From an uncultured Fodinibius sp. (GTDB taxonomy: Bacteria > Bacteroidota > Rhodothermia > Balneolales > Balneolaceae), in contig CAJXOG010000010.1 in the NCBI GenBank assembly GCA_913057775.1, positions 40,523 through 104,522 of the forward strand: a stretch of 64,000 nt of DNA, in the 5' to 3' direction. A model generated the notes under the pieces. That model was not told the DNA's origin. It did not search any database and saw only the letters and a list, made by a program, of their open reading frames with translations. Position numbers and translations under genes: made by a program. The number at the start of each line of letters is the position of its first letter. Position 1 is the first letter of the stretch. This document shows, one piece after another, positions 30,859-56,929 of the stretch.

Positions 30859-30868
30859 GAGTATAACT

Positions 30869-32306: not shown

Positions 32307-32341
32307 AAAAGGCACAGGAGTTAGATTCCCTGTGCCTTTTA
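32307..32341 (+). terminator. rho-independent terminator after the SusC/SusD pair
   Basis: AAAAGGCACAGG-agttagattc-CCTGTGCCTTTT has a GC-rich 8-bp core stem extended by A/T pairs and is followed by a T-run. Confidence 0.8.
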
Positions 32342-32376
32342 TATATCATCAATAATTATCTAAAAGATTTAATGCA

Positions 32377-33561
32377 ATGAAATATCGATTTGTATCAACA
32401 TCACTAATAATTTTTCTGTTTGTCTCTCTGATGGCTTGTGGGCCATCCCAAAAACAGGATATTCAACAGAAAATTACGAACACTTCGCAACACTTTGCAC
32501 CCGACAGCAGGGTGGCATTATTTGATGTAGAAGCAGAATCTAATAATGGGGAATGGGTGCTGAAGGGAGAAACGAATCTTCCGAAAGCCAAAGCCGCATT
32601 GCTCGATTCACTTTCAGCAATGAATATTACGACTGTTGACAGTATCAATGTGCTGCCAGATGATGGGCTTGAGGGAAAGACACTGGGAATTATTAACAAC
32701 TCAGTAGCGAACCTTCGATCGCGCCCTTCCCATCCCGCACAACTCGTAACTCAGGCCACATTGGGTATGCCCGTTAAGGTTCTTAAAAAAGAAGGCAGCT
32801 GGTATTTTATACAGACACCGGATGATTATTTGTCGTGGGTTGATTATGGAGGTATTCATCAAATGAGCCAAAAAGAATATGAAGAGTGGAAATCAGCGGA
32901 TAAAATTATTTATCTCGAAACCAATGGTTATGCATTTGAACAGCCGAATCGCGAATCATTAAAAGTATCTGATTTGGTAAGTGGAAGCATCCTCAAAGTT
33001 ACAGGGACAGAAGGAAATTATTATGAGGTTAGTTATCCCGACGGGCGAACCGGTTTTGTAAGCCGTTCTGAGGCTCGATCTTTTGACGATTGGAAGGCTT
33101 CCGTCCAAGCATCAGAGAATCAACTGGTGCAGGAGGCAAAATCAATGAAAGGGGCACCTTATTTGTGGGGAGGAACATCCTCCAAAGGCATGGATTGCAG
33201 TGGCTTTACCAAGACGATCTATTTTATGAATGGCTGGATTATTCCGCGAGATGCGTCTCAGCAAGTTCATGCAGGTGAATTAGTTGACTCTACCGGTAAC
33301 TTTGAGAATTTGCGACCGGGTGATTTGCTGTTTTTTGGAAGTGAGGCAACCGAAGAACGGGATCGACGTGTTGTGCACGTGGGCATGTGGATTGGTAATG
33401 ACGAATTTATTCATTCTGCAGGCCGGGTTAAGGTGAGCAGTATTGATCCTAAAGCGGAAAACTACGATGAGTATAATCTCAATCGCTATCTTGAATCCCG
33501 TCGATATCTGCAGCATAAAGAGGGTAACATTATTGACGTGGAAGATATGTATGAGATATAA
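32377..33561 (+). CDS. NlpC/P60 (C40) peptidase lipoprotein with SH3b-type N-terminal domains (YkfC-like architecture)
   Basis: 394 aa. It has the lipobox LMACG and SH3b-like segments (GIINNSVANLRSRPS...PVKVLKKEGSWYFIQTPDDYLSWV). The catalytic region is GAPYLWGGTSSKGMDCSGF...HVGMWIGNDEFIHS. Confidence 0.8.
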   Translation: MKYRFVSTSLIIFLFVSLMACGPSQKQDIQQKITNTSQHFAPDSRVALFDVEAESNNGEWVLKGETNLPKAKAALLDSLSAMNITTVDSINVLPDDGLEGKTLGIINNSVANLRSRPSHPAQLVTQATLGMPVKVLKKEGSWYFIQTPDDYLSWVDYGGIHQMSQKEYEEWKSADKIIYLETNGYAFEQPNRESLKVSDLVSGSILKVTGTEGNYYEVSYPDGRTGFVSRSEARSFDDWKASVQASENQLVQEAKSMKGAPYLWGGTSSKGMDCSGFTKTIYFMNGWIIPRDASQQVHAGELVDSTGNFENLRPGDLLFFGSEATEERDRRVVHVGMWIGNDEFIHSAGRVKVSSIDPKAENYDEYNLNRYLESRRYLQHKEGNIIDVEDMYEI

Positions 33562-33633
33562 TTTATATGAGTTTAATCACAAAACGCCTTTGAGAATTTG
33601 TTCCCGAACGCGCTTTTAAATTTTAGGTCGACA

Positions 33634-34530
33634 ATGAAACCACTTGTGCATTTGTCGAAGATAAGTCTTGTCTTAATTCTCGTAATGGCTTGTTCTTCGA
33701 ATCCCGATACAATTGTTGATTTGAAAACTGAAATACGACAGAATCTATCCACTCTTGATGGTCAGTTTGCTGTTGGATTTAAAACAATTGGAACCGATCA
33801 GCAAATATTTATCAACGAGCGAGAGATGTTTCATGCCGCAAGCACGATGAAAACTCCGGTGATGATCGAACTATTCAAGCAGGCTGAGGCCGGTCATTTT
33901 TCGCTGGATGATTCCATTGAAGTCAAAAATGAGTTTCGAAGTATTATCGACAGCAGTCGTTACCAAATGGATATTAATGAGGATAGTGAGGGAGAGCTGT
34001 ATGATTTAATTGGGCAAAGACGACCTATACGCACATTGATTAGTGACATGATTACCATCAGCAGTAACCTGGCTACAAATATCCTTATTGAAAAAGTTGG
34101 TGCGCAGAATGTGACGCAGACCATGCGTTATTATGGGGCTGACAGTATTAAGGTGTTACGTGGTGTGGAAGATATTAAAGCGTTTGAACAAGGTTTAAGC
34201 AACCGCACTACTGCTTTTGATGAAGTAGCTATCTATGAAAAACTGGCCCGTGGCGAGGCAGTCAGCAGGGAGGCATCCGAAGAAATGATTGCTATTCTCA
34301 AGAATCAGAATTTTAACGAGATGATTCCTGCCCAATTGCCCGACGACGTTGAAGTAGCTCACAAAACAGGATGGATTACGGGTGTAAATCACGATGTGGG
34401 GATTGTCGATCTTCCAGATGATCGCCGCTATGTATTGGTACTTTTATCAAAAGAAGCAGAAAGCCGCGATGATGTGCTTGCTACATTTGCAGACATTTCT
34501 CGATCAATTTTTGATTTCGTTACAAAGTAA
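33634..34530 (+). CDS. class A beta-lactamase-fold serine hydrolase, lipoprotein
   Basis: The start is at MKPLVHLSKISLVLILVMACSS (lipobox). Three active-site motifs occur in the correct order: STMK (SxxK), SSN (SxN) and KTGW (KTG). Confidence 0.75.
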   Translation: MKPLVHLSKISLVLILVMACSSNPDTIVDLKTEIRQNLSTLDGQFAVGFKTIGTDQQIFINEREMFHAASTMKTPVMIELFKQAEAGHFSLDDSIEVKNEFRSIIDSSRYQMDINEDSEGELYDLIGQRRPIRTLISDMITISSNLATNILIEKVGAQNVTQTMRYYGADSIKVLRGVEDIKAFEQGLSNRTTAFDEVAIYEKLARGEAVSREASEEMIAILKNQNFNEMIPAQLPDDVEVAHKTGWITGVNHDVGIVDLPDDRRYVLVLLSKEAESRDDVLATFADISRSIFDFVTK

Positions 34531-34546
34531 CTCAAAAAAATATTTA

Positions 34547-35560
34547 ATGATTGATGTGATTCAACTGGGGCTTGGTCCCATAGGGCAACAACTAACTCGC
34601 TATCTTGTAGAACGAAAAGGAATTTCAATTGTTGGGGCGGTTGATCCCGATCCCCAAAAAGTGGGCAAAGATCTGGGTAATTATGCCGAAATTGAAGCGC
34701 TTAGTAGTTCCATTTCATCTGATCTGAATTCGTGTCCAGCCGTTGATCAAGCTGATATTGCAGTCATATCTACAGTATCATCCTTGGAAAAGATGGAAGC
34801 CCAAATTCGAGAGGCTGTAGATTGTGGTTTGGATGTCGTATCAACGTGTGAGGAGCTTTCCCATCCCTGGCAAACGCAGCCCGAGCTGGCCCGACGTATT
34901 GATGACTATTGCAAACAGCAGGGCGTTAGCTGTGTTGGCACTGGTGTTAATCCCGGATTTTTGATGGATTTTCTGCCTTCCGTGCTAACGTCGGTTTGTC
35001 GAGAGGTAAAGCATATTAAAGTAGAGCGCGTGCAAGATGCACGTCCGCGCAGAAAACCATTCCATGATAAGATTGGTGTGGGGCTTACTCAATCGGAATT
35101 TGAAGAGAAAAGAGAAGGAATACGGCATGTGGGGTTGCCGGAATCTGTGTATTTGATTGCTGATGCCATGAATTGGGAGCTGACGAATGTGGATGAAATA
35201 CTAGAATCGATACAGGCTGAAAGTCCAATCCAAACGGAAAGTGGCATGGTAAGCCCTGGAAATGTTGCAGGGGTGCGACAGGTCGCGCGGGGATACCAGA
35301 ATGATCAGGAAGTTATTAGGCTGGTCTTTGAAGCAGCCGTCGGAATAGAAGAATCTCATGATAGTATTTATATAACCGGGGATCCTACATTTAATTCTAC
35401 CGTCGATGGTGGAATAAACGGGGATATCGCAACTTCTGCTATTATAGTGAATGTGATACGATCGATAAGGAGAGCTGCTCCGGGCCTCAAGACCATGCTT
35501 GATATAACAGCTCCTACTTATTTTAGTGGAATTAATGAAAAGGGTTTAGCTAAATATTAA
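34547..35560 (+). CDS. DapB-fold NAD(P)-dependent dehydrogenase (dihydrodipicolinate-reductase-like / amine dehydrogenase family)
   Basis: The start is at MIDVIQLGLGPIGQQLTRYL, a Rossmann GxGxxG-type motif. The track ORF's first 51 codons overlap the preceding gene and were discarded. There is no signal peptide. The family call rests only on the N-terminal fold motif and size. Confidence 0.55.
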   Translation: MIDVIQLGLGPIGQQLTRYLVERKGISIVGAVDPDPQKVGKDLGNYAEIEALSSSISSDLNSCPAVDQADIAVISTVSSLEKMEAQIREAVDCGLDVVSTCEELSHPWQTQPELARRIDDYCKQQGVSCVGTGVNPGFLMDFLPSVLTSVCREVKHIKVERVQDARPRRKPFHDKIGVGLTQSEFEEKREGIRHVGLPESVYLIADAMNWELTNVDEILESIQAESPIQTESGMVSPGNVAGVRQVARGYQNDQEVIRLVFEAAVGIEESHDSIYITGDPTFNSTVDGGINGDIATSAIIVNVIRSIRRAAPGLKTMLDITAPTYFSGINEKGLAKY

Positions 35561-35577
35561 TCTTCAGTTTAAGTAAG

Positions 35578-36951
35578 ATGGGAAAGAAATTATTGGTATC
35601 AATTTTTTTAATAACTTTGTTGGCAGCCGGGTGTCAATCTACAGAGGAAATTACCAGGGAGCAGCCCAAAACAGAGCAAAAGGAAGTAGCTCCGTTGGCA
35701 ACAATGATTGATACCTCTCAGGTTTTTTCGGCAAATCTTACAGGATTTGCCCTCTATGACCCGGATACTGATTCAATGATTCACAGCCAGAACGGGAATC
35801 GCTATTTTACCCCTGCCTCCAACACCAAGCTTTTTACTTTCTATACCGGATTGAAGCTGTTGCCTGACTCCATCAAAGCGCTGGAATACGAAGTGCGCGG
35901 GGACTCACTGATTTTCTGGGGAACGGGTGATCCATCGTTTTTACATCCCGATTTTGGCAATAAGAAGGTCTACGACTTTCTAAAAAAACGGGATGAAGAT
36001 CTCTACTTCTCTGATTCCAATTTTGATGATGAACTGTTGGGGCCGGGATGGTCTTGGAGCGATTATCAACATTATTATCAGACCGAAAAGGTACCGTTTC
36101 CTATCTTTGGCAATATAGCTCGATTTACTATTCAGGAAATTGAACTTCGCAAGATTGCTGAAACGGATAGTGGACTGGCGGTCTCTCCCAAATATTTCCA
36201 GTCATTTGTAGAAGAAAACGAACACCGTGATGATTTTCTTCACCGGGGGATGACAAACAATACGTTTTCCTATAAATCTGAGGCCGATACCAATACTTAT
36301 ACGATTGATAAACCGTTTCATTACAGCCCCGAATTGTTTACTGATATGTTGTCGGATACCCTCGATAAAACAGTTGAATATGTTGAGATCGAGCGTCCGA
36401 AATCTCCCCAAAAAATATATAGCATAAAATCGGATACAGCATATAAGCGGATGCTGCAGCCGAGTGATAATTTTATTGCCGAACAACTGTTACTGGTAAC
36501 GGCTTCTGAGCTGGGGAAGCCCCTGAACTCCAGAACTGTTATCGAAAAAATGAAGGAAGAATATTTGGATATCCTACCCAGAGAACCGCAATGGGTGGAT
36601 GGGTCGGGATTATCGCGCTATAATATGTTTACGCCCGAGTCTATGATTCGCCTCTTGGGAGCTATTGATGATGAATTTGTGGCTGATAAAAAGTTGTTTC
36701 ATTTGCTTCCTGCAGGAGGAGAGCGCGGAACAATAAGTAGTTGGTATGCCCCTCGTGACGACAAAGAAAAACCGTACGTTTTTGCAAAGACAGGCACCCT
36801 AAGCAACAACCATTCACTGAGTGGTTATTTATTGACCAAAAGTGGCAAGAAGCTATATTTTAGTTTTATGAATAATCACTATGTGGGATCTTCTTCCAAC
36901 GTTAAAAAAGAGATGGAAAAGGTACTATGGTATATTCACAAAAACTTCTGA
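35578..36951 (+). CDS. D-alanyl-D-alanine carboxypeptidase/endopeptidase, PBP4 (peptidase S13) family lipoprotein
   Basis: 457 aa. It has the lipobox LAAGC and the motifs SNTK (SxxK), SDN (SxN) and KTGT (KTG), spaced as expected for PBP4-type enzymes. Confidence 0.8.
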   Translation: MGKKLLVSIFLITLLAAGCQSTEEITREQPKTEQKEVAPLATMIDTSQVFSANLTGFALYDPDTDSMIHSQNGNRYFTPASNTKLFTFYTGLKLLPDSIKALEYEVRGDSLIFWGTGDPSFLHPDFGNKKVYDFLKKRDEDLYFSDSNFDDELLGPGWSWSDYQHYYQTEKVPFPIFGNIARFTIQEIELRKIAETDSGLAVSPKYFQSFVEENEHRDDFLHRGMTNNTFSYKSEADTNTYTIDKPFHYSPELFTDMLSDTLDKTVEYVEIERPKSPQKIYSIKSDTAYKRMLQPSDNFIAEQLLLVTASELGKPLNSRTVIEKMKEEYLDILPREPQWVDGSGLSRYNMFTPESMIRLLGAIDDEFVADKKLFHLLPAGGERGTISSWYAPRDDKEKPYVFAKTGTLSNNHSLSGYLLTKSGKKLYFSFMNNHYVGSSSNVKKEMEKVLWYIHKNF

Positions 36952-39605: not shown

Positions 39606-41465
39606 TTATTTTGACTGCTCAGGGCCAGAAGCGTCAATAGAGGTAGTTTCCTGCTTTATTTGTTGTCGGATTTCATCATCCAGATAGATATAAAATGCCT
39701 GATCGCCATTGGTGGGGGAGGGAGGATTGTCAATTGTATAGGGACGAATCTCGTTGTTAGAGGTGATTAAAAAAAGCGGGATATATTGCTCTCCAATTTG
39801 CTCTTCAAATTCAGTTGCAGGATTTTCCTCATTAAATTGCATCGATTGGATTGCTGTATGTTTTGAAAAGAAACGTGATAAATTTTCAAAATTTAAACGT
39901 TCATGAAACAAAATTCGCCCACTTAGGTGACTCGTTACATCTTTATTTTCCATCTGTCCCTGTGTATTGGGGGCAAGCTGAAAAACGTGGGACCGACCGA
40001 ATATTTCTCCAAATCGAAGGGCGGCAAGTGAGTTTGTTTCATCATTGGGCGTTAAAGAAATCATTCGTCCAACGCCATCAAGATTTAATTCTTCTAATGC
40101 AAATTCTGATAGGATATTTCCGTGGTATGTTTTAAGTCCCTTAGATCTGGCACGGCTAATATTTTTCCAGTTCGAATCTGCAACTAGCACTTTAAACCCT
40201 TCATCTTTAATTGCTTTCGCAATTTTCAATGCCCAGCTGTGGGCACCAAGAATTAAAAGTCCATTTGGCACAGGTTTAGCAACACCTAACTTGCGGGCTA
40301 CCCATGCAGCGGGGAGACCGTAAATAGTGACTGTGCCGATAATTACAAGAAAAACAATAGGCACCAGCTGGTCGGCATGTTCAAAACCATTTTGAGCTAA
40401 ATTTATCGCAAAAATAGAAGAGATAGACGCCGCTACAACACCACGAGGTGCCATCCAGCACAGGAAAAGTTTTTCACGCCAATTGATATCTGCAAAGTAT
40501 GTAGAAATGTACACGCCAATTGGTCGTGCAATAAGAATGAGAATAGCAAGAAAGGCTGCGAGGCTCCAGCTTAAATTTTGGATTAAACTGCTTAACTCTA
40601 CCCGTGCTGCCAGAAGTATAAATAGAGCAGACAGCAGGAGTACTCGCAAGTTTTCTTTGAATTCTGTGATGTGATGAATACGAGCTGTTTTTTGATTTGC
40701 TAATGCGATACCCATTAAGGTAGTAGCCCAGAGACCCGATTCATGTTGAAGCATATTCGAAATGGTAAATACGGTGACAACGACCATAAGATTTACCGGG
40801 TTCTGCAGGTAATCGGGAAGAAGGTGACGCTTTAGTAAAAAATAGATCAACGCAGCTCCCCCCAAACCTACCAGTGTACCAAATAAAATTGTTTTCATGA
40901 TACTCATAACGGCAACACTGGTGGCGGCAGAAAAACTGGTACTTAAAATTACTTCAAAGACAAGAACAGCAAGCATGGCTCCGATGGGATCAATGACAAT
41001 GCCTTCCCATTTAAGAATAGAACCTACCTGCCCAGAGGGACGAACCTGACGAAGTAAGGGAATAATAACGGTGGGTCCGGTAACTACAAGAATGGCTCCG
41101 AGCAGTATGGCGAGTTCCCAGTCGAATACAAATAGGTAGTAAGCCGAAACGGCGGTAATGCCCCAAGTTAAGACCACTCCTATACTTACCAAGTTACCAA
41201 CAGTACTGCCAATATCTTTAAGTTCAGAAAAACGAAGGCTTAAGCCTCCTTCGAAAAGGATAATAGCAACAGATACAGAAATAAAAGGCGAAAGCAGATC
41301 ACCCATTAATTGGTCTGGATCAAGAAGTCCAAAGACCGGTCCTGCAAGAACTCCGCTGATAAGCAATAGGAGAATAGCGGGTAACTTAAAGCGCCATGCA
41401 ACCCACTGTGCACCAATACCAAACAGTAGAATACTTGTTATACCAATTAAGAGATGTTCGCCCAT
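39606..41465 (-). CDS. CPA1-family cation:proton antiporter with C-terminal TrkA-N/RCK-like domain
   Basis: 619 aa. About 12 TM helices form a Na_H_exchanger-type core (FEGGLSLRF..., APRGVVAAS). The cytoplasmic tail LLILGAHSWALKIAKAIKDEGFKVLVADSN resembles a Rossmann/RCK_N fold with a degenerate glycine motif. Confidence 0.75.
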   Translation of the reverse strand: MGEHLLIGITSILLFGIGAQWVAWRFKLPAILLLLISGVLAGPVFGLLDPDQLMGDLLSPFISVSVAIILFEGGLSLRFSELKDIGSTVGNLVSIGVVLTWGITAVSAYYLFVFDWELAILLGAILVVTGPTVIIPLLRQVRPSGQVGSILKWEGIVIDPIGAMLAVLVFEVILSTSFSAATSVAVMSIMKTILFGTLVGLGGAALIYFLLKRHLLPDYLQNPVNLMVVVTVFTISNMLQHESGLWATTLMGIALANQKTARIHHITEFKENLRVLLLSALFILLAARVELSSLIQNLSWSLAAFLAILILIARPIGVYISTYFADINWREKLFLCWMAPRGVVAASISSIFAINLAQNGFEHADQLVPIVFLVIIGTVTIYGLPAAWVARKLGVAKPVPNGLLILGAHSWALKIAKAIKDEGFKVLVADSNWKNISRARSKGLKTYHGNILSEFALEELNLDGVGRMISLTPNDETNSLAALRFGEIFGRSHVFQLAPNTQGQMENKDVTSHLSGRILFHERLNFENLSRFFSKHTAIQSMQFNEENPATEFEEQIGEQYIPLFLITSNNEIRPYTIDNPPSPTNGDQAFYIYLDDEIRQQIKQETTSIDASGPEQSK

Positions 41466-41720: not shown

Positions 41721-41972
41721 ATGAACAGCCAAATAAAAAATAAACTTATCGCAGAATTTGCTTGGTTGTTCGGAATTATTATCGTATCAGCTGCATTGGA
41801 GTATACTATTATCGTATTTTTTAACCTACATCCGATATTAAGTGTTAAGATACAGGGATTTATCGGTCTTGTTGTAGTCGCATATATCATTCGCATGGTA
41901 GCCCGTATGGGTAAACAGGGAATTATTTCTTTTGAGGATGAGGGACAGGAAGAACCCGGTGAACGGGGATAA
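41721..41972 (+). CDS. small hypothetical membrane protein (2 predicted TM helices)
   Basis: 83 aa with two hydrophobic stretches (FAWLFGIIIVSAALEYTIIVFF; FIGLVVVAYIIRMV) and an acidic tail. It lies just upstream of the permease genes on the same strand. Confidence 0.4.
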   Translation: MNSQIKNKLIAEFAWLFGIIIVSAALEYTIIVFFNLHPILSVKIQGFIGLVVVAYIIRMVARMGKQGIISFEDEGQEEPGERG

Positions 41973-42043: not shown

Positions 42044-44170
42044 TTGGCAGAACTGAAAGATTCCAAAAAACTTAATAAAACACTTGGAGCATTTGATGTA
42101 TTCGCAATAGCAACGGGAGCTATGTTTAGTTCCGGTTTGTTTTTGTTGCCGGGCTTGGCTGCAAGCGTTACAGGGCCATCGGTGTTCCTGGCTTATCTGG
42201 TTTCGGGTATATTAGTATTACCCACTATGTTGAGTAAGGCAGAGCTTGGGACGGCTTTTCCCCGGGCTGGCGGCACTTATTATATTATTGATCGTACTTT
42301 AGGCCCATTGATGGGGAGCATTGGTGGATTTGGTTCGTGGTTATCCCTGGTTTTCAAGAGTGCTTTTGCACTCATCGGAATGGGTGCATATATATCGATC
42401 TTTTTTGATGTGCCTATAACACCGATTGCGATTATTCTCACTATTGCCTTTGGTGCACTTAATGTTTTTGGCGCAAAAGAAACAAGTAAGCTGCAGAATA
42501 TCCTTGTTATCACTCTGCTCTCGGTTATGGCTTTTTACCTGGTACAAGGGTTTTCGCACCTTTTTTCTTTAAGCATGTTGGATATCCATCGAGAGAAGTT
42601 TACCCCCTTTTTTAAGGATGGGATGCAAGGTTTCTTTGCTACGGTAGGGATGGTTTTTGTCTCTTATGCCGGGCTTACTAAGGTTGTAAGTGTGGCAGAA
42701 GAGGTTGAAGATCCGGATAAAAATATACCGCGGGGAATGTTTTTGTCGATACTAACCGCCATTGTAGTATATGTTGCCGGCGTAATTTTGATGACATCCG
42801 TATTGGAGCCTGAAGCTTTTTATCAGGATTTAACTCCTGTTGCCACCGCCGGTAATGTGTTTTTAGATTGGCTGCCGGGAGATACAGGCCTTATTTTAGT
42901 GGTTATTGCTGCCATTGCTGCATTTGCCTCCACCGGTAATGCCGGTATTATGTCGGCCTCTCGATTCCCATTGGCTATGGCCCGTGATAAGTTGGTTCAC
43001 GCTAACTTTTCGAAGTTAGGTAAGTTCGATACTCCCGTCTATTCTATCGTTGCTACGACTGGGATGATGATATTTTTACTATTGGTCTTTAATGTTAAAG
43101 AAGTGGCCAAGCTGGCCAGTGCTTTTAAGTTACTGTTGTTTGGGCTCCTCAACTTGGCTGTTATTGTGATGCGGGAAAGCCAAATTGAAGAGTATGATCC
43201 CGGCTATAAGTCACCGTTTTATCCCTGGGTGCAAATGCTGGGTATGTTAACGTCGGGGCTGCTGATTTTCGAGATGGGGCTTCTGTCTATCTTGTTTACG
43301 GTAGCTATCACCATTCTGTCGGTAGCCTGGTATTATTATTATGCCTATGGTGAGATTGATCGGCAGGGAGCTATATTTCATGTGCATGAGCGATTGGGAC
43401 AATATAAAGATCGCGGTCTTGAGCATGAGATGCGCCACATTTTACAGGAGAAAGGTTTGCGCGACGAAGATCCATACGAGCTGGTTGTTAGTAAGGCTAC
43501 AATCTTTGATGTGACTGATGATCAGATATCCTACGAAGATATTGTGGAAAAAGCCTGTACCACCCTGTCAACAAAAGTGAGTATGAAGAAAGAAGAGTTA
43601 ATTAAAGCATTCCAAAATGAAGATGATTTTGGAGCACTTTCGATCGGAAATGGAGCTGCGTTAAATCATACAAGAATACCTGTTGAGTCAGAGCCGGAGT
43701 TGTTTATAGTGCGAATAAAAGACGGGTTGGTTACACGAGACACCTGTTTTGAGGATAATGGCAAAGATGAGGAGAAGCATAAGTTTTATGCCCTGTTCTT
43801 TTTAGTCAGCTCAGAAAAGGATGCTACGCAGCACCTGCGATTTTTGGCGCATATGGCTGAAATGATTGATCAGAAGAATTTTTTTGAACGCTGGGTTTCA
43901 GCAAAAGATGAAGCAGAGCTTCGGGAAGTATTACTACGGAACGAACGGTTTATCAATATTTATGTTCGTTCAGATGATAAAACAGCCAAGTTGATTGGAA
44001 AGAAAATATATGAGGTAGATCTGCCCGGAGAAAGCCTTGTGGCCATATTGGAAAGAGGGGAAAGTGTTAATATTCCCCATGGCAATACTGAAATCCGCGA
44101 GGGAGATAAATTGTCTATCATTGGCCAAACAGAGGATATTGAGGAGATAAAAGAACTCAAAAATAAATAG
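42044..44170 (+). CDS. APC-superfamily permease fused to PTS EIIA(Ntr)-like and TrkA-C (RCK_C) domains
   Basis: 708 aa with a TTG start. About 440 aa form a 12-TM amino-acid-permease-like core. An EIIA-2-like segment follows (FGALSIGNGAALNHTRI ... FYALFFLVSSEKDATQHLRFLAHMAEMI ... AELREVLL) that parallels PtsN GIGNGIAIPHG ... LLFALLVP...HL..L. Its His codon is at 43667..43669. The C-terminus is RCK_C-like (KLIGKKIYEVDLPGESLVAILERGESVNIPHGNTEIREGDKLSIIG). Confidence 0.75.
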   Translation: MAELKDSKKLNKTLGAFDVFAIATGAMFSSGLFLLPGLAASVTGPSVFLAYLVSGILVLPTMLSKAELGTAFPRAGGTYYIIDRTLGPLMGSIGGFGSWLSLVFKSAFALIGMGAYISIFFDVPITPIAIILTIAFGALNVFGAKETSKLQNILVITLLSVMAFYLVQGFSHLFSLSMLDIHREKFTPFFKDGMQGFFATVGMVFVSYAGLTKVVSVAEEVEDPDKNIPRGMFLSILTAIVVYVAGVILMTSVLEPEAFYQDLTPVATAGNVFLDWLPGDTGLILVVIAAIAAFASTGNAGIMSASRFPLAMARDKLVHANFSKLGKFDTPVYSIVATTGMMIFLLLVFNVKEVAKLASAFKLLLFGLLNLAVIVMRESQIEEYDPGYKSPFYPWVQMLGMLTSGLLIFEMGLLSILFTVAITILSVAWYYYYAYGEIDRQGAIFHVHERLGQYKDRGLEHEMRHILQEKGLRDEDPYELVVSKATIFDVTDDQISYEDIVEKACTTLSTKVSMKKEELIKAFQNEDDFGALSIGNGAALNHTRIPVESEPELFIVRIKDGLVTRDTCFEDNGKDEEKHKFYALFFLVSSEKDATQHLRFLAHMAEMIDQKNFFERWVSAKDEAELREVLLRNERFINIYVRSDDKTAKLIGKKIYEVDLPGESLVAILERGESVNIPHGNTEIREGDKLSIIGQTEDIEEIKELKNK

Positions 44171-44327
44171 TTAACCCCGATGTCTGGGAACCGATAACAG
44201 ATTAAGTAAGTCTTGTATTCAATATTGATATTCTTTCAATAAAACAGAGAAGAAGTTTTTTTAAGAAAATGGCTTATTTTCTTAAACTCTGAATTAAAAT
44301 TTAATAACCGTTTTAATCTAAAAGAGC

Positions 44328-46451
44328 ATGCAGCACGAAAAACTGGAAAAGCAACTTGGGTTGTGGGATGTATATGCAATCGCTACGGGAGCAATGTTTA
44401 GTTCCGGATTTTTTCTATTACCGGGTATTGCTGCAGCAATAACAGGTCCATCGGTGTTTATTGCATATTTTGTTTCAGGGCTTCTTGTTTTACCGACTAT
44501 GTTTAGTGTAGCAGAGTTAGCTACGGCTATGCCTAAAGCAGGGGGGACGTATTACATTATTGATCGGAGCCTTGGACCCGTGATGGGTACCATTGGCGGC
44601 TACGGTTCTTGGTTGGCCCTAGTGTTAAAAAGTGCATTTGCGTTGATCGGAATGGGCGCTTATATCTCCATTTTTATCGACCTTCCCATTTTGCCGGTAG
44701 CAATAGTATTGACCGTTGTTTTTGGTGTCTTGAATATTTTTGGGGCTAAGGAGACTACTGCCCTGCAGAAAGTATTGGTTGCCGCCCTGATAAGTATCAT
44801 GACCTTTTATATTGCCCAGGGATTATTCTCCGTTTTCTCTGCTGATTTCTTTGAAGTTACCCGTAATCAGTTCACACCACTTTTTATTGATGGGGCCACT
44901 GGTTTTTGGGCTACAGTAGGGATGGTTTTTGTATCCTATGCCGGACTCACAAAAGTTGCTAGTGTGGCTGAGGAGGTAAGAAATCCCGATAAAAATATTC
45001 CGTGGGGTATGTTCCTCTCTATCATGTCGGCCATATTCGTGTATGTAGCCGGGGTATTTATCATGGTTTCAGTGTTAGATCCCAGTGAATTTCGTGAAGA
45101 TCTTACTCCCGTTGCTACGGCCGGAGAAGCTTTTATGAGTTGGTTGCCGGGAGATCTGGGTATCATACTTGTTGTAATAGCTGCGGTAGCCGCATTTGCC
45201 TCTACCGGAAATGCGGGCATCATGTCGGCCTCAAGATATCCCTTGGCAATGGCCCGAGACAAGCTTATTGACAACCGGTTTTCAAAAATTGGTACAAAGG
45301 GTACTCCTGTGATTGCCATTATTGCTACTGTTCTGTTGATGATTTTCTTTCTCGTAGCTTTTAATGTTGCCCAAGTAGCGAAGTTGGCCAGTGCTTTTCA
45401 GCTACTTTTGTTTGGATTACTGAACTTGGCCGTAATTGTAATGCGTGAAAGTAAAATTGAGGAATATGATCCTGGTTTTAACTCACCGTTTTATCCTTGG
45501 GTGCAGATTATTGGGATGATTCTCTCGGCTGTTCTTATTCTGGAAATGGGTCTCCTATCAATTCTCTTTACCCTGGTAGTGAGTATTTTTAGTATAGGAT
45601 GGTTTTATTACTATGCATACGGTAAGATCGATCGCGAAGGGGCTATCTTTCATGTAACGGCTCGTCTGGGTAAACGCAAAGATCATGGATTGGAGCGAGA
45701 AATGCGGGGCATACTTCGGGAGAAGGGGCTTCGTGAAGAAGATCCTTATGAACATGTAGTGGCCAGTGCTGCGGTTATTGATGAGCCAAATAAAGAGCTG
45801 AGTTATAAGACGATTATCAAACAGGCTTCAGATATTTTGGCTGATCGGTTGGATATGAATCAGGGATTTCTTGTCAATAGCTTTTGCAAGGCTCAGGATA
45901 TGGGAACAATACCGCTCGGCAATAGCACAGTTATTAATCATATTCGAGTTGATGAAGACTTCGAGCCACAGATGGTACTGGTGCGTATTCCGGAAAGTAT
46001 TGCTGTTTCTACCGAGGGATTTGAAGTGCTTGATGAGGATGAAACAGGAGAAGTTGAAAACTTGTGTGCAATGATCTTCTTGGTAAGTTCATCTGAGAAC
46101 TCTAGTCAGCACTTGCGACTAATTGCACACTTAGCTGAGATGATTGACAGTAGACACTTTATTGAGCGATGGAAAAGTGCGGACAATGAATCAGAGTTGC
46201 GAGAAATTCTTCTTAGGGATGAACGCTTTATCAATATTACGATCAGTAGAAGTAATGAAACTCAAAAGCTTATTGGCAAAAAGATCATGGAGATTGATCT
46301 GCCCGGTGAAAGTCTTATTACGATTCTGAAGCGAAATGGTAAAATCAAGATACCGCACGGAAATACTGTCTTAGAAGAAGATGATGAGATATCTATTATC
46401 GGAGAGGTGGAAGATATAGGGGAGATTAGAAAATGGCGTAAGTCAGAATAA
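44328..46451 (+). CDS. APC-superfamily permease fused to PTS EIIA(Ntr)-like and TrkA-C (RCK_C) domains (tandem paralog)
   Basis: 707 aa and collinear with the upstream paralog over its full length. The EIIA-like motif is IPLGNSTVINHIRV with the His codon at 45939..45941. The RCK_C tail is KLIGKKIMEIDLPGESLITILKRNGKIKIPHGNTVLEEDDEISIIG. Confidence 0.75.
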   Translation: MQHEKLEKQLGLWDVYAIATGAMFSSGFFLLPGIAAAITGPSVFIAYFVSGLLVLPTMFSVAELATAMPKAGGTYYIIDRSLGPVMGTIGGYGSWLALVLKSAFALIGMGAYISIFIDLPILPVAIVLTVVFGVLNIFGAKETTALQKVLVAALISIMTFYIAQGLFSVFSADFFEVTRNQFTPLFIDGATGFWATVGMVFVSYAGLTKVASVAEEVRNPDKNIPWGMFLSIMSAIFVYVAGVFIMVSVLDPSEFREDLTPVATAGEAFMSWLPGDLGIILVVIAAVAAFASTGNAGIMSASRYPLAMARDKLIDNRFSKIGTKGTPVIAIIATVLLMIFFLVAFNVAQVAKLASAFQLLLFGLLNLAVIVMRESKIEEYDPGFNSPFYPWVQIIGMILSAVLILEMGLLSILFTLVVSIFSIGWFYYYAYGKIDREGAIFHVTARLGKRKDHGLEREMRGILREKGLREEDPYEHVVASAAVIDEPNKELSYKTIIKQASDILADRLDMNQGFLVNSFCKAQDMGTIPLGNSTVINHIRVDEDFEPQMVLVRIPESIAVSTEGFEVLDEDETGEVENLCAMIFLVSSSENSSQHLRLIAHLAEMIDSRHFIERWKSADNESELREILLRDERFINITISRSNETQKLIGKKIMEIDLPGESLITILKRNGKIKIPHGNTVLEEDDEISIIGEVEDIGEIRKWRKSE

Positions 46452-46532: not shown

Positions 46533-47891
46533 GTGACAGATAATAGCAACGGTTTAACACAAAAAATTAAGAGTTTTTTCCAAAGAGACTCAGCGGCAGG
46601 TATGATGCTTTTGTATGCTACCATACTTGCCTTGGTTGTGGCAAATAGCCCGCTTTATGAATGGTATCATCATTTCTTGGAGCTTCATATCTCTATAGGG
46701 GTTGGAGATCTAATGATTGATGAATCAGTTCACCATTGGATTAATGATGGATTGATGGCCGTATTTTTCCTGCTCGTTGGGTTAGAGATTAAACGTGAGC
46801 TAAAATATGGAGAGCTTTCAACCGTTCAGTCCGCTTTATTGCCGGCTGTAGCTGCAGTTGGGGGAGCCGCATTGCCGGCGTTAATGTTCTGGGGTTTAAA
46901 TGCAGGAACGGGCTATATGGATGGCTGGGCGATTCCAATGGCTACAGATATTGCTTTTGTAATTGGTATTGTAGCGCTGCTTGGTTCTCGGGTTCCGGTT
47001 TGGGCGAAGGTGTTTGTAACAGCTATTGCGGTAGTGGATGATCTGATTGCCGTTTTGGTCATTGCCTTTTTCTATACGGAATCCATAAGTATGATAGCCT
47101 TGGGCATTGCCGGTGTTTGTTTCCTCATTTTGATGCTGTTCAATTATCGCGGAGTTCATAAAATTTCTCCCTATATGATTATAGGATTTATCATGTGGTG
47201 GGCCGTACTTAAATCCGGTGTTCACGCAACCATTGCCGGAGTAATGCTTGGTTTTGTGATGCCGGCAAGCCGTGGATGGAGTCTGGAGCGTTTGAAAGAG
47301 TATGCCCAAGAAGGCTTTGACCTGTTTAAACAGGCTGAAGACGACGATATGCCTGTAACTAAAGAACAGGCACTGCATCATATGGAAGAAACAGTGGAAC
47401 ATGCTGAATCGCCGCTACACCGATTGGAGCATAAATTACACTTCTCGGTGTATTTCCTGATTATGCCAATATTTGCTTTTGCCAATGCCGGTGTTGTTTT
47501 TGATCCCGAAGTAATGGGCCATGCATTTGTTTCTACCTTAACATGGGGTATTGCAATTGGATTATTTGTGGGTAAGCAGGTAGGCATATTAGGATTTACC
47601 TGGATTCTCACGAAATTAGGGTTTACTGATTTGGCTGACAACAAGGAAACCTGGAAAGTGGTATATGGCGTCGCGCTGCTTGCCGGAATCGGATTTACGA
47701 TGTCACTTTTTATTGCTAACCTCTCGTTTGAGGCAGGATCAGAAGTTCTTGAATTTGGAAAGGTGGGAATTTTAATTGGTTCTCTTGCCAGTGGTCTGTT
47801 GGGTTATTACTTCCTGAGCCGACGTCCGGATTATGGTGCAGAAACACAACAGCCCTACGATGTACCTGAAGGAAACGAAGTGACTTCTTAA
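46533..47891 (+). CDS. nhaA: Na+/H+ antiporter NhaA
   Basis: 452 aa with a GTG start. It has the hallmark WINDGLMAVFFLLVGLEIKRE and AIPMATDIAF (the DD-motif region is ...AVVDDLIAV). Confidence 0.9.
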   Translation: MTDNSNGLTQKIKSFFQRDSAAGMMLLYATILALVVANSPLYEWYHHFLELHISIGVGDLMIDESVHHWINDGLMAVFFLLVGLEIKRELKYGELSTVQSALLPAVAAVGGAALPALMFWGLNAGTGYMDGWAIPMATDIAFVIGIVALLGSRVPVWAKVFVTAIAVVDDLIAVLVIAFFYTESISMIALGIAGVCFLILMLFNYRGVHKISPYMIIGFIMWWAVLKSGVHATIAGVMLGFVMPASRGWSLERLKEYAQEGFDLFKQAEDDDMPVTKEQALHHMEETVEHAESPLHRLEHKLHFSVYFLIMPIFAFANAGVVFDPEVMGHAFVSTLTWGIAIGLFVGKQVGILGFTWILTKLGFTDLADNKETWKVVYGVALLAGIGFTMSLFIANLSFEAGSEVLEFGKVGILIGSLASGLLGYYFLSRRPDYGAETQQPYDVPEGNEVTS

Positions 47892-51904: not shown

Positions 51905-53401
51905 TTAATTCTTTTGAGATAAAAGTGCTTTTGCTTGATTGAGAATGCTTTGAATAAGCTGATTTAATTCATCAGAAATATTCATGGCCCACAAGGGAAG
52001 AACGTAAGTGATAGTAACCACAACAGAACGCAAAAGTATATCTAAATAGTTGTTGGCGGGATGCGGTATGAGGTAAGCGACTGTAAGTGAGAGAATCCCG
52101 ATAAAGACTATCAGTAACATTTTCCATTGGAAAGGTTGCATGGAAAAGCGCAACCATACATAGAATAATTTGAGTGTATTATAAATGATGATTGCTGATG
52201 CGGTGCCAATAGCGGCACCGACAATTCCATATATAGGAATTAACAGATAATTTAAGATTACTGTTATGATAATGAGCAGTACTGTTGAATAGAAGTCAAA
52301 TCGGTAGTGCTTGGAATTAAGGATTATTGCTCCGTTAATGCCGGTTACCATGTCAAACATATTGGCCATGCCGATAATGATAATAACCATTGCACCTCCC
52401 GAGTATTCCTTGGGCAGTATGTCCATAAGGTTATACAGGCTGGCTATGACCCCGCAGAATAGTAATCCGCCGGCTAAAACTTGGTTTAAGGAAGATCGTT
52501 TATAGATCTGTTCGATAAGATCAAAGTTGTGCTCCTTGAAAGCATCTGCAATGACCGGAGATGATATTTTATAGATGGACTGTCGGGTAATAGTAATGGC
52601 TGATCCGATATAAAATGCGATGGCATAAATTCCGGTATCATCCAGACCAGCGAGGGAGCTGAGCATGATAATATCGATATTGGAGACAATAATGGAAGCA
52701 ATACCTCCGAAAAATGAAAACAGGCTGTAGTTCATCATCTTTTGAATAAGCGACCTGTTCAAGAAATAAAAATCGGGAATGAGCGATACGTTGGAGGTCC
52801 AGAGCATATAGACAAAAAGAATAAAAAGAACGATGCCATAGTTTAGGACAAACAGAATGACAAACTGATTGAACGTAAGCCACCCCATAAAGTAGATGAT
52901 GAGTAATAAGGCCGTTAAAACACGGACAACAACATCCATCAGGAATGAAGATAGGACGGTGTCGTAGAGTGCCTGCACAAATTTGGTAATGACATGGAAG
53001 AAAAGAATGGAGAAAGCAAGCGGCAATATAAACCAGTAATAGTCGAGAAGCAGCTCTGAACGTTCTACAAAATACTGGGTGATTTGGGGGCGGAAGATAT
53101 AGAGTCCCAATCCGAGCAGTAGAAAACCAATCAACGGAACAATAAGAGATAAAAATAAGAAACCGTGATGATTCTCTTCTTTATCTCTAAAAAAGGGAAA
53201 GAATCGTATGATGGTATTTTTGATTCCCAGGCTGCCCAGCTGGGTCGAAACCATGGCCAGTGACAACAGTACGCGGGTAAGCCCATACTGCTCGGGAGTG
53301 AGAATATTGGGATACATCCAGATAGTAACCACAAATCCCAGGGCTACGCCAATATAGGAGATGATCGTGTTTTGAATGCTTTGCCTGAATATGACTCCCA
53401 A
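51905..53401 (-). CDS. MOP-superfamily polysaccharide/oligosaccharide flippase (Wzx-like)
   Basis: 498 aa with a TTG start. About 14 TM helices run throughout, and the N-terminus (FRQSIQNTIISYIGVALGFV) is typical of polysaccharide biosynthesis proteins. It is the last gene of the glycan locus. Confidence 0.7.
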   Translation of the reverse strand: MGVIFRQSIQNTIISYIGVALGFVVTIWMYPNILTPEQYGLTRVLLSLAMVSTQLGSLGIKNTIIRFFPFFRDKEENHHGFLFLSLIVPLIGFLLLGLGLYIFRPQITQYFVERSELLLDYYWFILPLAFSILFFHVITKFVQALYDTVLSSFLMDVVVRVLTALLLIIYFMGWLTFNQFVILFVLNYGIVLFILFVYMLWTSNVSLIPDFYFLNRSLIQKMMNYSLFSFFGGIASIIVSNIDIIMLSSLAGLDDTGIYAIAFYIGSAITITRQSIYKISSPVIADAFKEHNFDLIEQIYKRSSLNQVLAGGLLFCGVIASLYNLMDILPKEYSGGAMVIIIIGMANMFDMVTGINGAIILNSKHYRFDFYSTVLLIIITVILNYLLIPIYGIVGAAIGTASAIIIYNTLKLFYVWLRFSMQPFQWKMLLIVFIGILSLTVAYLIPHPANNYLDILLRSVVVTITYVLPLWAMNISDELNQLIQSILNQAKALLSQKN

Positions 53402-53481
53402 AACGGTTGTTCGTTATTTAAAAAGGTGTGAGAACTTACTAATATTTCTGATTGGTTATCATAGAAGTTGTAAAGAAGATA

Positions 53482-54447
53482 TCACAATCCGATTTTACGT
53501 TTTATAATCTTTTTAAAAGCGGGTAAGGTGTACCGTTTATCATGGATAGAAAGTTTATTGAGATAGCTCAATTTTCCGCTTAGCATAATTTTAAATGCTG
53601 TATATATTTCCTCGAGCGCTATTCGGATATGAATGCTATAGTTGTATTTATAATCTGAATAGTCATTGAATTCAAAAAGCATTTTTTTTAATGATTGGAG
53701 GTATTTATCCAGGTGTTGTGCTTGGTTGCTCAAATTACTCCAAGAGTTAGTATGTCCGCTCCGGTAGCAGCTCATTATATCCGGTAGGGCTCCGATTTTA
53801 CCGTGCTCGATAGCCAGCAGATACAGTGAATAATCGCCGACATAGGCATCCACAAACCAGTCTGGCATTTTTGTCAGTATATCGCTCCGAAAAAAGACAC
53901 TGTTTGTAGCACAAAATCCACCTCCTTTTTCAATAATTTTTTCTGGTTTGATTATTGATTGAGTCTTTATATTTGGAAAGATAGATTTCTGTAGCCCTTT
54001 TTCATCAATTATATAAGCGTTATGCAGTGACATAGAAATATCTACACTTGATTCCATGAAGTCATATTGTTTTTGCAATTTCCGGGAATCAATCCAATAG
54101 TCATCACCGTCGCAGAAAGCTATATATTTACCGCGGGCTACCTTTAGGGTTTCCAAAAAGTTATGGCGACCGGTAGGGTTACCATTAATATAGCGCACAT
54201 TTTCTCTCGAGCGCAGAAATAGCCGAATGTTCTCCGGATGTTGTTCTGCTAGCTGCTTGCAGATTTCTCGTGTTCCATCGTAGGATTCATCTTCCCCAAT
54301 AATAATTTCTATTGGGAAGTTCGTCGTTTGATCGAGGGCACCTTTCACGCATTTTTTGATGTATGCAGCATGTTGATAAGTGGTAATACAGACTGATACC
54401 TGCGGTTCTATTTCATTTATCGCTTTTTCTGTTCCAAGGTATTCCAT
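53482..54447 (-). CDS. glycosyltransferase family 2
   Basis: 321 aa. It has VSVCITTYQHAAYIKKCVKGALDQT...IIIGEDESYDGT and the DxD-type motif FCDGDDYW. Its start lies 31 nt inside the upstream sulfotransferase ORF. Confidence 0.8.
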   Translation of the reverse strand: MEYLGTEKAINEIEPQVSVCITTYQHAAYIKKCVKGALDQTTNFPIEIIIGEDESYDGTREICKQLAEQHPENIRLFLRSRENVRYINGNPTGRHNFLETLKVARGKYIAFCDGDDYWIDSRKLQKQYDFMESSVDISMSLHNAYIIDEKGLQKSIFPNIKTQSIIKPEKIIEKGGGFCATNSVFFRSDILTKMPDWFVDAYVGDYSLYLLAIEHGKIGALPDIMSCYRSGHTNSWSNLSNQAQHLDKYLQSLKKMLFEFNDYSDYKYNYSIHIRIALEEIYTAFKIMLSGKLSYLNKLSIHDKRYTLPAFKKIIKRKIGL

Positions 54448-55238
54448 CTAAAATGTTTTTCAATTTCAAGAAATCGGTCATCCGTTTTGATCTCATTTAT
54501 GATAACGGGATTAAGCTGGCTTGTCCATTCAAATCCGGTTTTATTTTTCCGGTACACATCATAGGGATCATCTGATGTGGAAGCGGTGCTTTCTTCTAAA
54601 AAAGCCTCCGTCTGTTCATTCAGGGCAAGACCTGCGAAATCAAAAGCTTCCCTGGTGTTTTTTAAAGGGTTATCAACTAGTTTTTCATAGCATAGCAGGT
54701 GAAAGCGATTTGGAAAGTTTTTCTGAAGACGTAGAAACATTCGAGTGGCATCCAGCCAACGTTCATACCCGTAGAAATCGTGTTCAGAAGTATTCTTCTT
54801 ATGAGCGTACCGCCACTCCTCTAATATATCCCATTGTTCATCGAATTCTTTTGGAGCATTATGCCAGGAATGAATGGTTCCGCAGGGATGCCGTACAATG
54901 CCAACAACCTTTATTTTTGATTGTTTTAAAAGATTGTGAATGATATCGAGGTATCGGACTTCTTTCCATACCAGATGAGTACGCTGCGTTTTGGAAAATG
55001 TTGGCGTTTGGTTGCCGCTTATATTCTGTCTTTGACAAACAAAATCGTCATTTGTTTGCAATAGCTTTTCATGAAAATGGGTAATCTCTTTTTGACTGCT
55101 CTCGGCAGTGAGACTCTCATCAAACGAATAGGCAAAAATCGGTTGATAGCGGTAAACTACATTTGGAGAGCTGTTGAAAATTTGGCCGAGCCAGGAAGTT
55201 CCCGATCGAGGTACGCCGAAAATTGCTACGTTCTGCAT
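54417..55238 (-). CDS. PAPS-dependent sulfotransferase family protein
   Basis: 273 aa with no signal peptide. The 5'-PSB-type loop FGVPRSGTSW starts at residue 7, and the 3'-PB-like segment is GIVRHPCGTIHS. Confidence 0.75.
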   Translation of the reverse strand: MQNVAIFGVPRSGTSWLGQIFNSSPNVVYRYQPIFAYSFDESLTAESSQKEITHFHEKLLQTNDDFVCQRQNISGNQTPTFSKTQRTHLVWKEVRYLDIIHNLLKQSKIKVVGIVRHPCGTIHSWHNAPKEFDEQWDILEEWRYAHKKNTSEHDFYGYERWLDATRMFLRLQKNFPNRFHLLCYEKLVDNPLKNTREAFDFAGLALNEQTEAFLEESTASTSDDPYDVYRKNKTGFEWTSQLNPVIINEIKTDDRFLEIEKHFRWNTLEQKKR

Positions 55239-55239
55239 A

Positions 55240-55941
55240 TCATACCAAGTTATAGGCTGTTAAATGATCATCGCGAATTTTCTCCGGAGCATTAAACATC
55301 ATAACATCAATAATTGATAACCCTGGTACAAAATCGTTATCGAACTGTTCGTACTCTTTTAGGGATGGCTCAATGAATTGTAGTGTGACGCCATCGTTTA
55401 GGAATTCCTCTTTGTTGTAAAGCTCTTTTCCGCCCGTGGGATTTATATAAGTTGTCATTTTCTCTTTTTTACAGATGTCGATAAGTCGTTCTGCTTTCCC
55501 AAGGTCGGTGTTATTGTATTCTTCGGAACTGACTTTAAATGTGGTATCCATGTTCAGATAACTGCTGGTTTGGCGGACACTTTGCATTGCCAAATCGGCA
55601 ATATAGCTACTTTCTGTTTGTAACACATTTTCAACGATAGGAAATATATCATCAAAAAAGGGAGCATTGCTATAAGAGAATTTGATCTTCCGTAGAAGTT
55701 TGCCCCGCTTTTTGTCTGTCATTGCATGCTTGACCTCGTTGATGAGCTTGTTCTGTGAGGCATCTTTGCATGGAATGGTAAAGTAGTTCTCCTCTCCATT
55801 TATAAGTACTTTATTTCTATTGATCCATCCCCGCGTAATAAAATTTACATCATTATAGAAGACAAAGGTATCAACCTCAGATATTAGCTGAAAATATCCT
55901 ATGTAGGGAAAAAGATATGGCTGGACAATTCCGATACTCAT
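55240..55941 (-). CDS. WbqC family protein
   Basis: 233 aa. The N-terminus IGIVQPYLFPYIGYFQLI is characteristic of WbqC-like proteins, and the gene lies in a polysaccharide-locus context. Confidence 0.7.
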   Translation of the reverse strand: MSIGIVQPYLFPYIGYFQLISEVDTFVFYNDVNFITRGWINRNKVLINGEENYFTIPCKDASQNKLINEVKHAMTDKKRGKLLRKIKFSYSNAPFFDDIFPIVENVLQTESSYIADLAMQSVRQTSSYLNMDTTFKVSSEEYNNTDLGKAERLIDICKKEKMTTYINPTGGKELYNKEEFLNDGVTLQFIEPSLKEYEQFDNDFVPGLSIIDVMMFNAPEKIRDDHLTAYNLV

Positions 55942-55942
55942 G

Positions 55943-56926: not shown

Positions 56927-56929
56927 AGT

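Follow-up and report, generated by a model that had tools for sequence, protein, structure and literature searches.

Tandem APC-type carriers ending in EIIA(Ntr)-like and RCK_C domains in a Balneolaceae bacterium, and their possible control by a phosphorelay

What regulates a secondary carrier whose own polypeptide ends in a domain resembling those found in the phosphotransferase system (PTS), which runs on phosphoenolpyruvate? This question is raised by two adjacent genes, copies A and B, in a 64,000-nucleotide stretch (the window) of contig CAJXOG010000010.1 (positions 40,523 to 104,522, forward strand; assembly GCA_913057775.1) from an uncultured Fodinibius sp. of the Balneolaceae. Each gene encodes an APC carrier core to which a conserved linker joins a tail with an EIIA(Ntr)-like and an RCK_C domain. 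The original prediction, made before any database search, described the two reading frames as collinear neighbours, named the three domains and proposed that a regulatory PTS module is covalently attached to the transporter. The reading that we favour, with a probability of roughly 0.55, is that this tail acts as a dual-input gate, in which phosphorylation of His542 (copy A) and His538 (copy B) by Enzyme I (EI) and HPr, together with a ligand of the RCK_C domain, would set the transport activity of the carrier.

The two open reading frames (ORFs) lie where they had been placed and are collinear over their full length; a BLASTP alignment of 702 residues with two gaps shows 63% identity and 79% positives. 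In both copies, the domains AA_permease_2, PTS_EIIA_2 and TrkA_C score above their Pfam gathering cut-offs (Table 1), with 154.2 bits (copy A) and 146.1 bits (copy B) against a cut-off of 27 for the permease core. The best hits are 94% identical, and the organism is a Fodinibius/Aliifodinibius-like member of the Balneolaceae. A full-length AlphaFold model built from an alignment of 20 sequences has a pLDDT of 80.9 and a pTM of 0.79. After the last transmembrane (TM) helix, a 50-residue linker shares 72% identity between the copies and is conserved to the same degree as the core. Its family motif is R.GAI.HVFERLG...GLE.ELR.ILKEKGLR..DPF, and 20 diverse members show little or no variation at R440, G442, A443, R450, L451, G452, E462, E469, G471 and D476.

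The middle domain is closest to EIIA(Ntr) in both sequence and fold. A profile built from the EIIA domains of 22 diverse family members found its strongest matches in structures of PtsN/EIIA-Ntr (4gqx, E = 2.1e-14; 3urr; 2a0j; 1a6j, E = 1.7e-11), and the sole further hit, 3oxp, was weak. This profile places the family motif G-x-A-L-P-H-x-R on the 'GIAIPHGK/R' of PtsN and the motif Q-H-L-R on its 'T-H-L-H', at the position of His120. The His in 'GIAIPHGK' of 1a6j is His73, the residue phosphorylated in E. coli PtsN. Both copies retain the aligned His, at exactly the codons that had been predicted, as well as the second active-site His. A tail-only AlphaFold model (pLDDT 86.4) has the EIIA-2 fold, matching EIIA-Ntr 2a0j with a TM-score of 0.84, 1a6j with 0.74 and the IIA-Mtl structure 1a3a with 0.70 (Foldseek). 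A failure to match EIIA-2 profiles or folds had been named as a result that would speak against the prediction; both copies clear the PTS_EIIA_2 cut-off and the fold agrees, so that the Pfam domains, the PtsN profile and the predicted folds support the attachment of a PTS-type module to the carrier. The NCBIfam equivalog model for PtsN itself (NF008145) is not reached, copy B scoring 26.8 bits against a cut-off of 221 (E = 3.6e-6).

Conservation of the putative active site was analyzed in the tails of 111 divergent cluster representatives. The acceptor His is present in 88 of them, with the consensus G-x-A-L-P-H-x-R, and the remaining tails have Y, D, N, E or Q in its place, whereas 100 tails retain the second His. 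Both residues occur together in 85 tails, the first alone in three, the second alone in 15 and neither in eight. The correlated loss of both residues (odds ratio 15, Fisher p = 1e-4, without phylogenetic correction) is expected if they form one functional site. Among tails from named genomes, 74 of 91 keep both, and Hellea/Hyphomonas has lost both.

A presumed phosphodonor is encoded in the same window. The HPr gene (ptsH) recognized in the original prediction is genuine, as judged by TIGR01003 and by its His15 and Ser46 motifs (Table 1), and its product scores higher as HPr than as NPr. In contigs carrying an identical HPr, ptsI, which encodes an EI of 585 residues, is located directly 3' of ptsH, just past the end of the window. 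This EI contains the domains PEP-utilisers_N, PEP-utilizers and PEP-utilizers_C (TIGR01417, 528 bits), and its match to PtsP (PRK11061) begins at model position 166, so that the GAF region is missing. With an EI that lacks GAF and a carrier protein of HPr type, the two genes are a ptsH-ptsI pair rather than a canonical PTS-Ntr. Homologues of EI are conserved through Fodinibius and the Balneolaceae, the best 120 all belonging to this family, and in several species they are found on transporter-bearing contigs. As EI directly follows HPr, a phosphorelay input exists in this Fodinibius-like (Balneolaceae) organism. The remaining window contains no other PTS gene, and the 10 kb downstream of ptsH-ptsI showed neither an EIIB nor an EIIC gene. 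The gene after ptsI encodes a bifunctional phosphoglucose/phosphomannose isomerase (PGI/PMI; stretch beyond the window end, L001:10248-13049).

In the proposed mechanism, EI would autophosphorylate from phosphoenolpyruvate (PEP) and hand the phosphoryl group to His15 of HPr, and HPr~P would phosphorylate the EIIA-like domain, at His542 in copy A and at His538 in copy B. Without an EIIB or a sugar acceptor, the EIIA-like domain would be a terminal acceptor in the manner of PtsN, and its phosphorylation state would report PEP/pyruvate status. This state would alter the docking of the tail on the carrier and shift the transport rate up or down, as in LacS. The RCK_C domain would provide the second input, probably via dimerisation of two chains, with cyclic di-AMP (c-di-AMP), a nucleotide or K+ as candidate ligands.

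The published precedents of LacS and of PtsN with YcgO support such a mechanism, and the former makes its principle less novel than had been claimed for this locus. In the secondary carrier LacS from Streptococcus thermophilus, HPr(His~P) phosphorylates a fused EIIA-Glc-like domain, and only the phosphorylated IIA domain interacts with the carrier domain, changing transport (PMC8154325). Like copies A and B, it combines a carrier with a covalent C-terminal PTS EIIA domain. However, the LacS domain is an EIIA-Glc (PTS_EIIA_1) with a fold different from that of the EIIA-2/Ntr domain (PTS_EIIA_2) found here, and its carrier belongs to the GPH/MFS proteins and not to APC, so that the two systems are analogous in logic only and copies A and B are not LacS-type proteins. 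In addition, LacS has no RCK_C domain, its substrate is a sugar linked to PTS metabolism, and its hosts are Firmicutes instead of Bacteroidota-related or Gemmatimonadota lineages. In E. coli, the CPA1 K+/H+ antiporter YcgO is inhibited when PtsN, in its unphosphorylated form, binds to its C-terminal region (CorC + RCK) (PMC11808508), and PtsN also acts on TrkA and KdpD (PMC13104625). PtsN is both the nearest relative of the middle domain and a terminal phospho-acceptor without a sugar. Nevertheless, it is a free protein of 163 residues that acts in trans and is fed by EI-Ntr (with GAF) and NPr, whereas the domain described here is fused, in cis, and would be served by a PtsI-type EI without GAF and an HPr-type carrier protein.

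Several observations weigh against the favoured reading. The acceptor His is absent, clade by clade, from about 20% of the members, being replaced by Tyr ('PY') in Salinibacter/Rhodothermales, by Phe ('NF') in a Balneolaceae paralogue that stands in tandem with an 'NH' copy, and by Asn ('PN') in Myxococcota, which implies that the domain can work without phosphorylation. Copies A and B, like most Balneolales, have Asn in place of the canonical Pro before the His ('NH' versus 'PH'), a state found in six of the 111 tails. The EIIA-like domain is also the fastest-evolving region, with 39% identity between the copies compared with 71% in the core; between orthologues, it falls to 54% even where the cores are 92% identical. 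HPr and EI are encoded 17 kb from the transporters, past an unrelated polysaccharide cluster, and adjoin family members in none of the 80 related loci on which our neighbourhood counts rest; operon linkage of the family with the PTS is thereby rejected. Finally, the TM5 Lys implicated in proton coupling in ApcT/GkApcT is replaced by Leu158 in the alignment. The picture that emerges from the alignments is of a regulatory domain whose active site is conserved while its surface evolves freely, and in which phosphorylation appears to have been abandoned in some lineages.

Most of these features would also fit a domain that is not phosphorylated in vivo and serves as a structural or allosteric module or a docking platform, as in the SLC4 carriers (Band 3/AE/NDCBE), with the conserved His needed for folding, ligand binding or pH sensing. 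The missing acceptor His, the Asn before it, the lack of PTS gene linkage and the fast evolution of the domain all favour this view, and the tail model does match the EIIA-fold cytoplasmic domains of SLC4 proteins in Foldseek (5jho, 1hyn and AE2), which set a precedent for an EIIA fold joined to a carrier without phosphotransfer. In SLC4 (Band 3/AE1, AE2 and NDCBE), this regulatory domain is likewise covalently attached to a secondary carrier, but it is N-terminal and eukaryotic, and it comes without detectable sequence similarity, phospho-His chemistry or RCK_C. The sequence similarity of the tails is specific to PtsN, not to SLC4. Moreover, the motifs PH..R and HLR are kept in about 80% of the members over more than 10 phyla, with correlated losses, and the lineage has conserved genes for both EI and HPr. 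We therefore regard a purely non-phosphorylated role as rather unlikely.

The RCK_C domain, the second input of the phosphorylation-dependent gate favoured here, is related to TrkA (3jxo; phmmer E = 2.5e-8; Foldseek root-mean-square deviation (rmsd) 1.7 A, 36% identity). Its model also superposes on the c-di-AMP-bound RCK_C domain of CpaA from Staphylococcus aureus (5f29/4ys2) with TM-scores of 0.78-0.81 (rmsd 1.7 A, 23% identity), and the two match by sequence (E = 4e-4). These similarities, drawn in part from the model, would also suit an arrangement in which RCK_C is dominant: c-di-AMP (or K+ or a nucleotide) at the dimer interface would open or close the carrier, much as c-di-AMP controls transporters of osmolytes and K+, and the EIIA-like domain would transmit or buffer the signal. 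The neighbouring cation/proton antiporters, one of them with RCK_N, point the same way, as does Haloferax, where RCK_N and RCK_C are split over adjacent transporter genes in a c-di-AMP context (PMC12699388). Such an arrangement seems improbable to us, as it leaves the conservation of the EIIA active-site motifs unexplained, and one family member (P0238) has the EIIA-like domain without a TrkA_C match. The known RCK_C-regulated systems KtrA/TrkA, CpaA and KhtT, which are c-di-AMP receptors, carry the same TrkA_C fold at the cytoplasmic end of the carrier. They move K+ or Na+/H+ and usually possess an RCK_N as well as an RCK_C, whereas copies A and B have a lone RCK_C after an EIIA-like domain on an APC carrier of amino-acid type.

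The substrate class can be judged from the membrane core. By sequence, its closest solved relative is GkApcT (phmmer, E = 1.6e-27), followed by plant and mouse CATs, MjApcT, BasC, AdiC and LATs, with weaker matches to the SLC12 cation-chloride cotransporters. The core of the model superposes on GkApcT (6f34) with a target-normalised TM-score of 0.85 and an rmsd of 2.8 A over 452 columns at 24% identity (Foldseek), revealing a LeuT-type fold. In APC carriers, the unwound segments of TM1 and TM6 bind the alpha-carboxylate and alpha-amino groups of the substrate. The corresponding segments 'GAMFSSG' (TM1) and 'FVSYAGL' (TM6) align with 'GAIIGTG' and 'FFAYIGF' of GkApcT. Thus, GkApcT and other homologues of bacterial CAT type (SLC7), together with MjApcT, are the best matches of the core in sequence and structure, but the identity is only 24%, these proteins have no cytoplasmic regulatory tail, and they carry the TM5 Lys where Leu is found here. 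No NCBIfam equivalog or subfamily model of defined substrate, those for CAT and ethanolamine permease included, reached its cut-off (the best, TIGR00909, gave 183.6 bits against 556.8, and BcaP, the second, 156.8 against 690), so the substrate is not assignable by homology. The core is of the amino-acid/organocation type and most probably carries an amino acid or else an organic cation or osmolyte related to one. The earlier suggestion of an ion or osmolyte instead of an amino acid therefore survives in part: an organic osmolyte is still plausible, as is an amino acid, whereas an inorganic ion does not agree with a core that is nearest to amino-acid carriers and keeps their TM1/TM6 motifs. A K+ or Cl- transporter identity of the core (SLC12-like or KUP-like) was rejected in view of match strength and motifs. 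That the carriers move K+, Na+ or Cl- as part of an ion-homeostasis module with the flanking antiporters is very unlikely, since the presence of a CPA1 antiporter with RCK_N and of NhaA on either side of the pair (a homologue of the former adjoins 13 of the 80 related loci, in several phyla), the significant SLC12 matches and the absence of the proton-coupling Lys are set against sequence and fold matches, substrate-binding segments and top NCBIfam models that all belong to amino-acid carriers.

How widespread this architecture is was determined by searching with the tail alone against 1.84 billion representatives clustered at 50% identity. The search returned 681 matching clusters at E <= 1e-3, of which 248 passed a limit of 1e-10 and 70 a limit of 1e-30. 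In a set of 38 full-length representatives, TrkA_C was detected in 36, PTS_EIIA_2 in 35 and AA_permease_2 in 32 (Pfam). The survey of domain architectures proposed with the original prediction shows that these proteins are not rare, with at least 583 loci in named genomes of at least 10 phyla. The full-length architecture is found in Balneolales, Cyclobacterium, Saprospiraceae, Chitinophagales, Rhodothermales/Salinibacter/Rubrivirga and many Gemmatimonadota, as well as in Trueperaceae, Caldilineaceae, Myxococcota, Bradymonadaceae, Phycisphaerae, Lentisphaerales, Acidobacteriota and Hellea/Hyphomonas. A word-indexed search with the tail gave 14 hits, mostly fragments, and the tail-only representatives among them lie on contigs of 1-4 kb and are probably truncated genes.

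The same tail is not confined to simple APC carriers. In one protein (P0135), a CPA1 antiporter (Na_H_Exchanger), two EIIA-2 domains and TrkA_C are joined in a single chain, which is in effect the PtsN-YcgO (CvrA) pair fused. The cassette also occurs on a SulP+STAS carrier (P0251), on an APC carrier with two Usp domains (P0148) and behind N-terminal regions without a Pfam match (P0182 and P0149), and in P0150 it follows a complete RCK on an APC carrier (APC+TrkA_N+TrkA_C+EIIA-2+TrkA_C). Its presence on CPA1, SulP and APC+Usp carriers indicates a generic gate and not a substrate-specific part. A broader and more tentative idea, which we consider possible although on balance doubtful, is that EIIA(Ntr)-like plus RCK_C is a widespread portable dual-input gate, combining a PTS phospho-signal with a small ligand, that secondary carriers of the APC, CPA1 and SulP types have acquired again and again in phyla long deemed to lack the PTS or to be poor in it (Balneolota/Bacteroidota, Rhodothermota, Gemmatimonadota and others). 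If so, the EI-HPr pair of the Balneolaceae would serve largely the control of osmolyte and ion transport instead of sugar uptake, and the fusions would be a cis 'Rosetta stone' identifying EIIA-Ntr and RCK_C as direct functional partners, which would clarify the disputed mechanism of PtsN action on TrkA and YcgO in Proteobacteria.

Hundreds of genomes label such genes just 'amino acid permease', and for some of them JGI gives the name 'amino acid transporter/mannitol/fructose-specific PTS IIA component (Ntr-type)'. Since the databases already display the domain composition, the architecture itself is no discovery. Our literature searches turned up neither an account of an APC-EIIA-RCK_C protein nor a paper on the combination of EIIA-Ntr-class and RCK_C domains on APC, CPA1 or SulP carriers, a brief earlier mention of such fusions being possible. 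Control of transport by PTS phosphorylation is central in bacterial physiology and is known mainly from Proteobacteria (inducer exclusion and the action of PtsN on K+ systems) and Firmicutes (LacS and HPr). The family described here would extend it to carriers of amino-acid, CPA1 and SulP type in many environmental phyla, several of them halophilic. In the Fodinibius pair, the PTS phosphorelay probably tunes solute uptake directly through the fused tail. This tail points to a link, in bacteria adapted to salt, of carbon and energy status with K+/Na+ homeostasis and with the uptake of organic solutes; its recognition improves annotation, and the joining of EIIA-Ntr-like and RCK_C domains in one polypeptide makes these proteins a tractable model for EIIA-Ntr crosstalk with RCK-gated transporters.

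Table 1. Positions of the tandem carriers, their domains and active-site residues, and of associated genes in the window.
Feature	Position	Strand	Residues	Evidence and remarks
CPA1 cation/proton antiporter with TrkA_N (RCK_N), divergent neighbour	39606..41465	-	TrkA_N 404-493	Pfam
ORF with two hydrophobic (TM) segments, upstream of copy A	41721..41972	+	83 aa	Same position in loci L005, L007, L026 and L011
Copy A: APC carrier, conserved linker, EIIA(Ntr)-like, RCK_C	42044..44170	+	708 aa	ORF, TTG start; Pfam, AlphaFold (AF2)
Copy A AA_permease_2, LeuT-fold carrier core	42083..43270	+	14-409	Pfam E = 6.6e-45
Copy A cytoplasmic linker, conserved	43349..43498	+	436-485	Family alignment; A/B identity
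Copy A PTS_EIIA_2	43529..43936	+	496-631	Pfam 46.3 bits, cut-off 27
Copy A putative phospho-acceptor His	43667..43669	+	His542	CAT; motif GAALNHTR; alignment to PtsN
Copy A second active-site His	43832..43834	+	His597	CAC; motif TQHLRF; aligned to PtsN His120
Copy A TrkA_C (RCK_C)	43979..44158	+	646-705	Pfam 46.1 bits, cut-off 27
Copy B: architecture as copy A	44328..46451	+	707 aa	ORF, ATG start; Pfam, BLASTP
Copy B AA_permease_2	44355..45590	+	10-421	Pfam E = 2e-42
Copy B PTS_EIIA_2	45801..46214	+	492-629	Pfam 46.2 bits, cut-off 27
Copy B putative phospho-acceptor His	45939..45941	+	His538	CAT; motif STVINHIR; codon check; aligned to PtsN His73
Copy B second active-site His	46110..46112	+	His595	CAC; motif SQHLRL; aligned to PtsN His120
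Copy B TrkA_C	46257..46436	+	644-703	Pfam 42.9 bits, cut-off 27
NhaA Na+/H+ antiporter, 81 nt past copy B	46533..47891	+		Pfam E = 6e-143; TIGR00773 above cut-off
ptsH (HPr), presumed phosphodonor	63669..63953	+	94 aa	TIGR01003 105 bits, cut-off 47.9; His15 (GLHARPA), Ser46 (GKSILG)

The pair is flanked by two antiporter genes (Table 1). For the CPA1 protein, the best NCBIfam match is a K+/H+ antiporter model, below its cut-off, and NhaA adjoins five of the 80 related loci. Among 127 nearest neighbours, Na_H_Exchanger was found 10 times, TrkA_N eight times and NhaA four times, cation/proton antiporters being the sole recurrent functional partners. The recurrence of K+/H+ and Na+/H+ antiporters suggests that organic-solute uptake is coupled to ion and osmotic homeostasis in this halophile. 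The CPA1 protein of the window has RCK_N without a detectable TrkA_C, and the adjacent APC proteins have RCK_C without RCK_N, a split similar to that in Haloferax. The small ORF upstream of copy A has no Pfam match and is kept at 83-46% identity in Fodinibius sp. SL11, A. salipaludis, F. sediminis and a Balneolaceae metagenome-assembled genome; its product might serve the carriers as a small membrane subunit or as a regulator, its membership in the system being uncertain. A scan for promoters and terminators around the pair gave counts at the level of shuffled sequence, with all terminator-like sites lying within coding sequence.

Tandem paralogue pairs are present in 10 of the 80 related loci, in several phyla. 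On two Balneolaceae chromosomes the pairs are asymmetric, with one 'NH' copy and one copy with Phe ('GVYFNFVR') at the acceptor position (L012:7119-7865 and 9315-10088; L017:7144-7890 and 9321-10082), an arrangement that hints at heteromeric or divergent regulation.

Other parts of the window encode functions of the cell surface and of nutrient acquisition. The polysaccharide biosynthesis cluster that separates the carriers from ptsH (51905..63100) is unusually rich in sulfotransferases (54417..55238, 55943..56926, 58058..58807 and, with a weak match, 58839..59639) and also includes WbqC, a DegT aminotransferase, two GT2 enzymes, a Polysacc_synt flippase and a YfhO-like protein, which suggests a sulfated surface glycan. 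At 25400..36951, genes for an extracytoplasmic function (ECF) sigma factor, a FecR anti-sigma factor, a SusC-like TonB receptor and a SusD-like lipoprotein are followed by those for an NlpC/P60+SH3 peptidase, a class-A-like beta-lactamase-family protein, a 2,4-diaminopentanoate-dehydrogenase-like enzyme and an S13 D-Ala-D-Ala carboxypeptidase. This region resembles a polysaccharide utilization locus and appears to be aimed at peptidoglycan-derived peptides or D-amino acids, not at a polysaccharide. On the reverse strand, 9485..14368 encodes a protein of 1627 residues in which Big_5 repeats and five Lamin-tail domains are combined with a CHU_C type IX secretion signal, by these domains a large surface protein predicted to be secreted by the type IX system.

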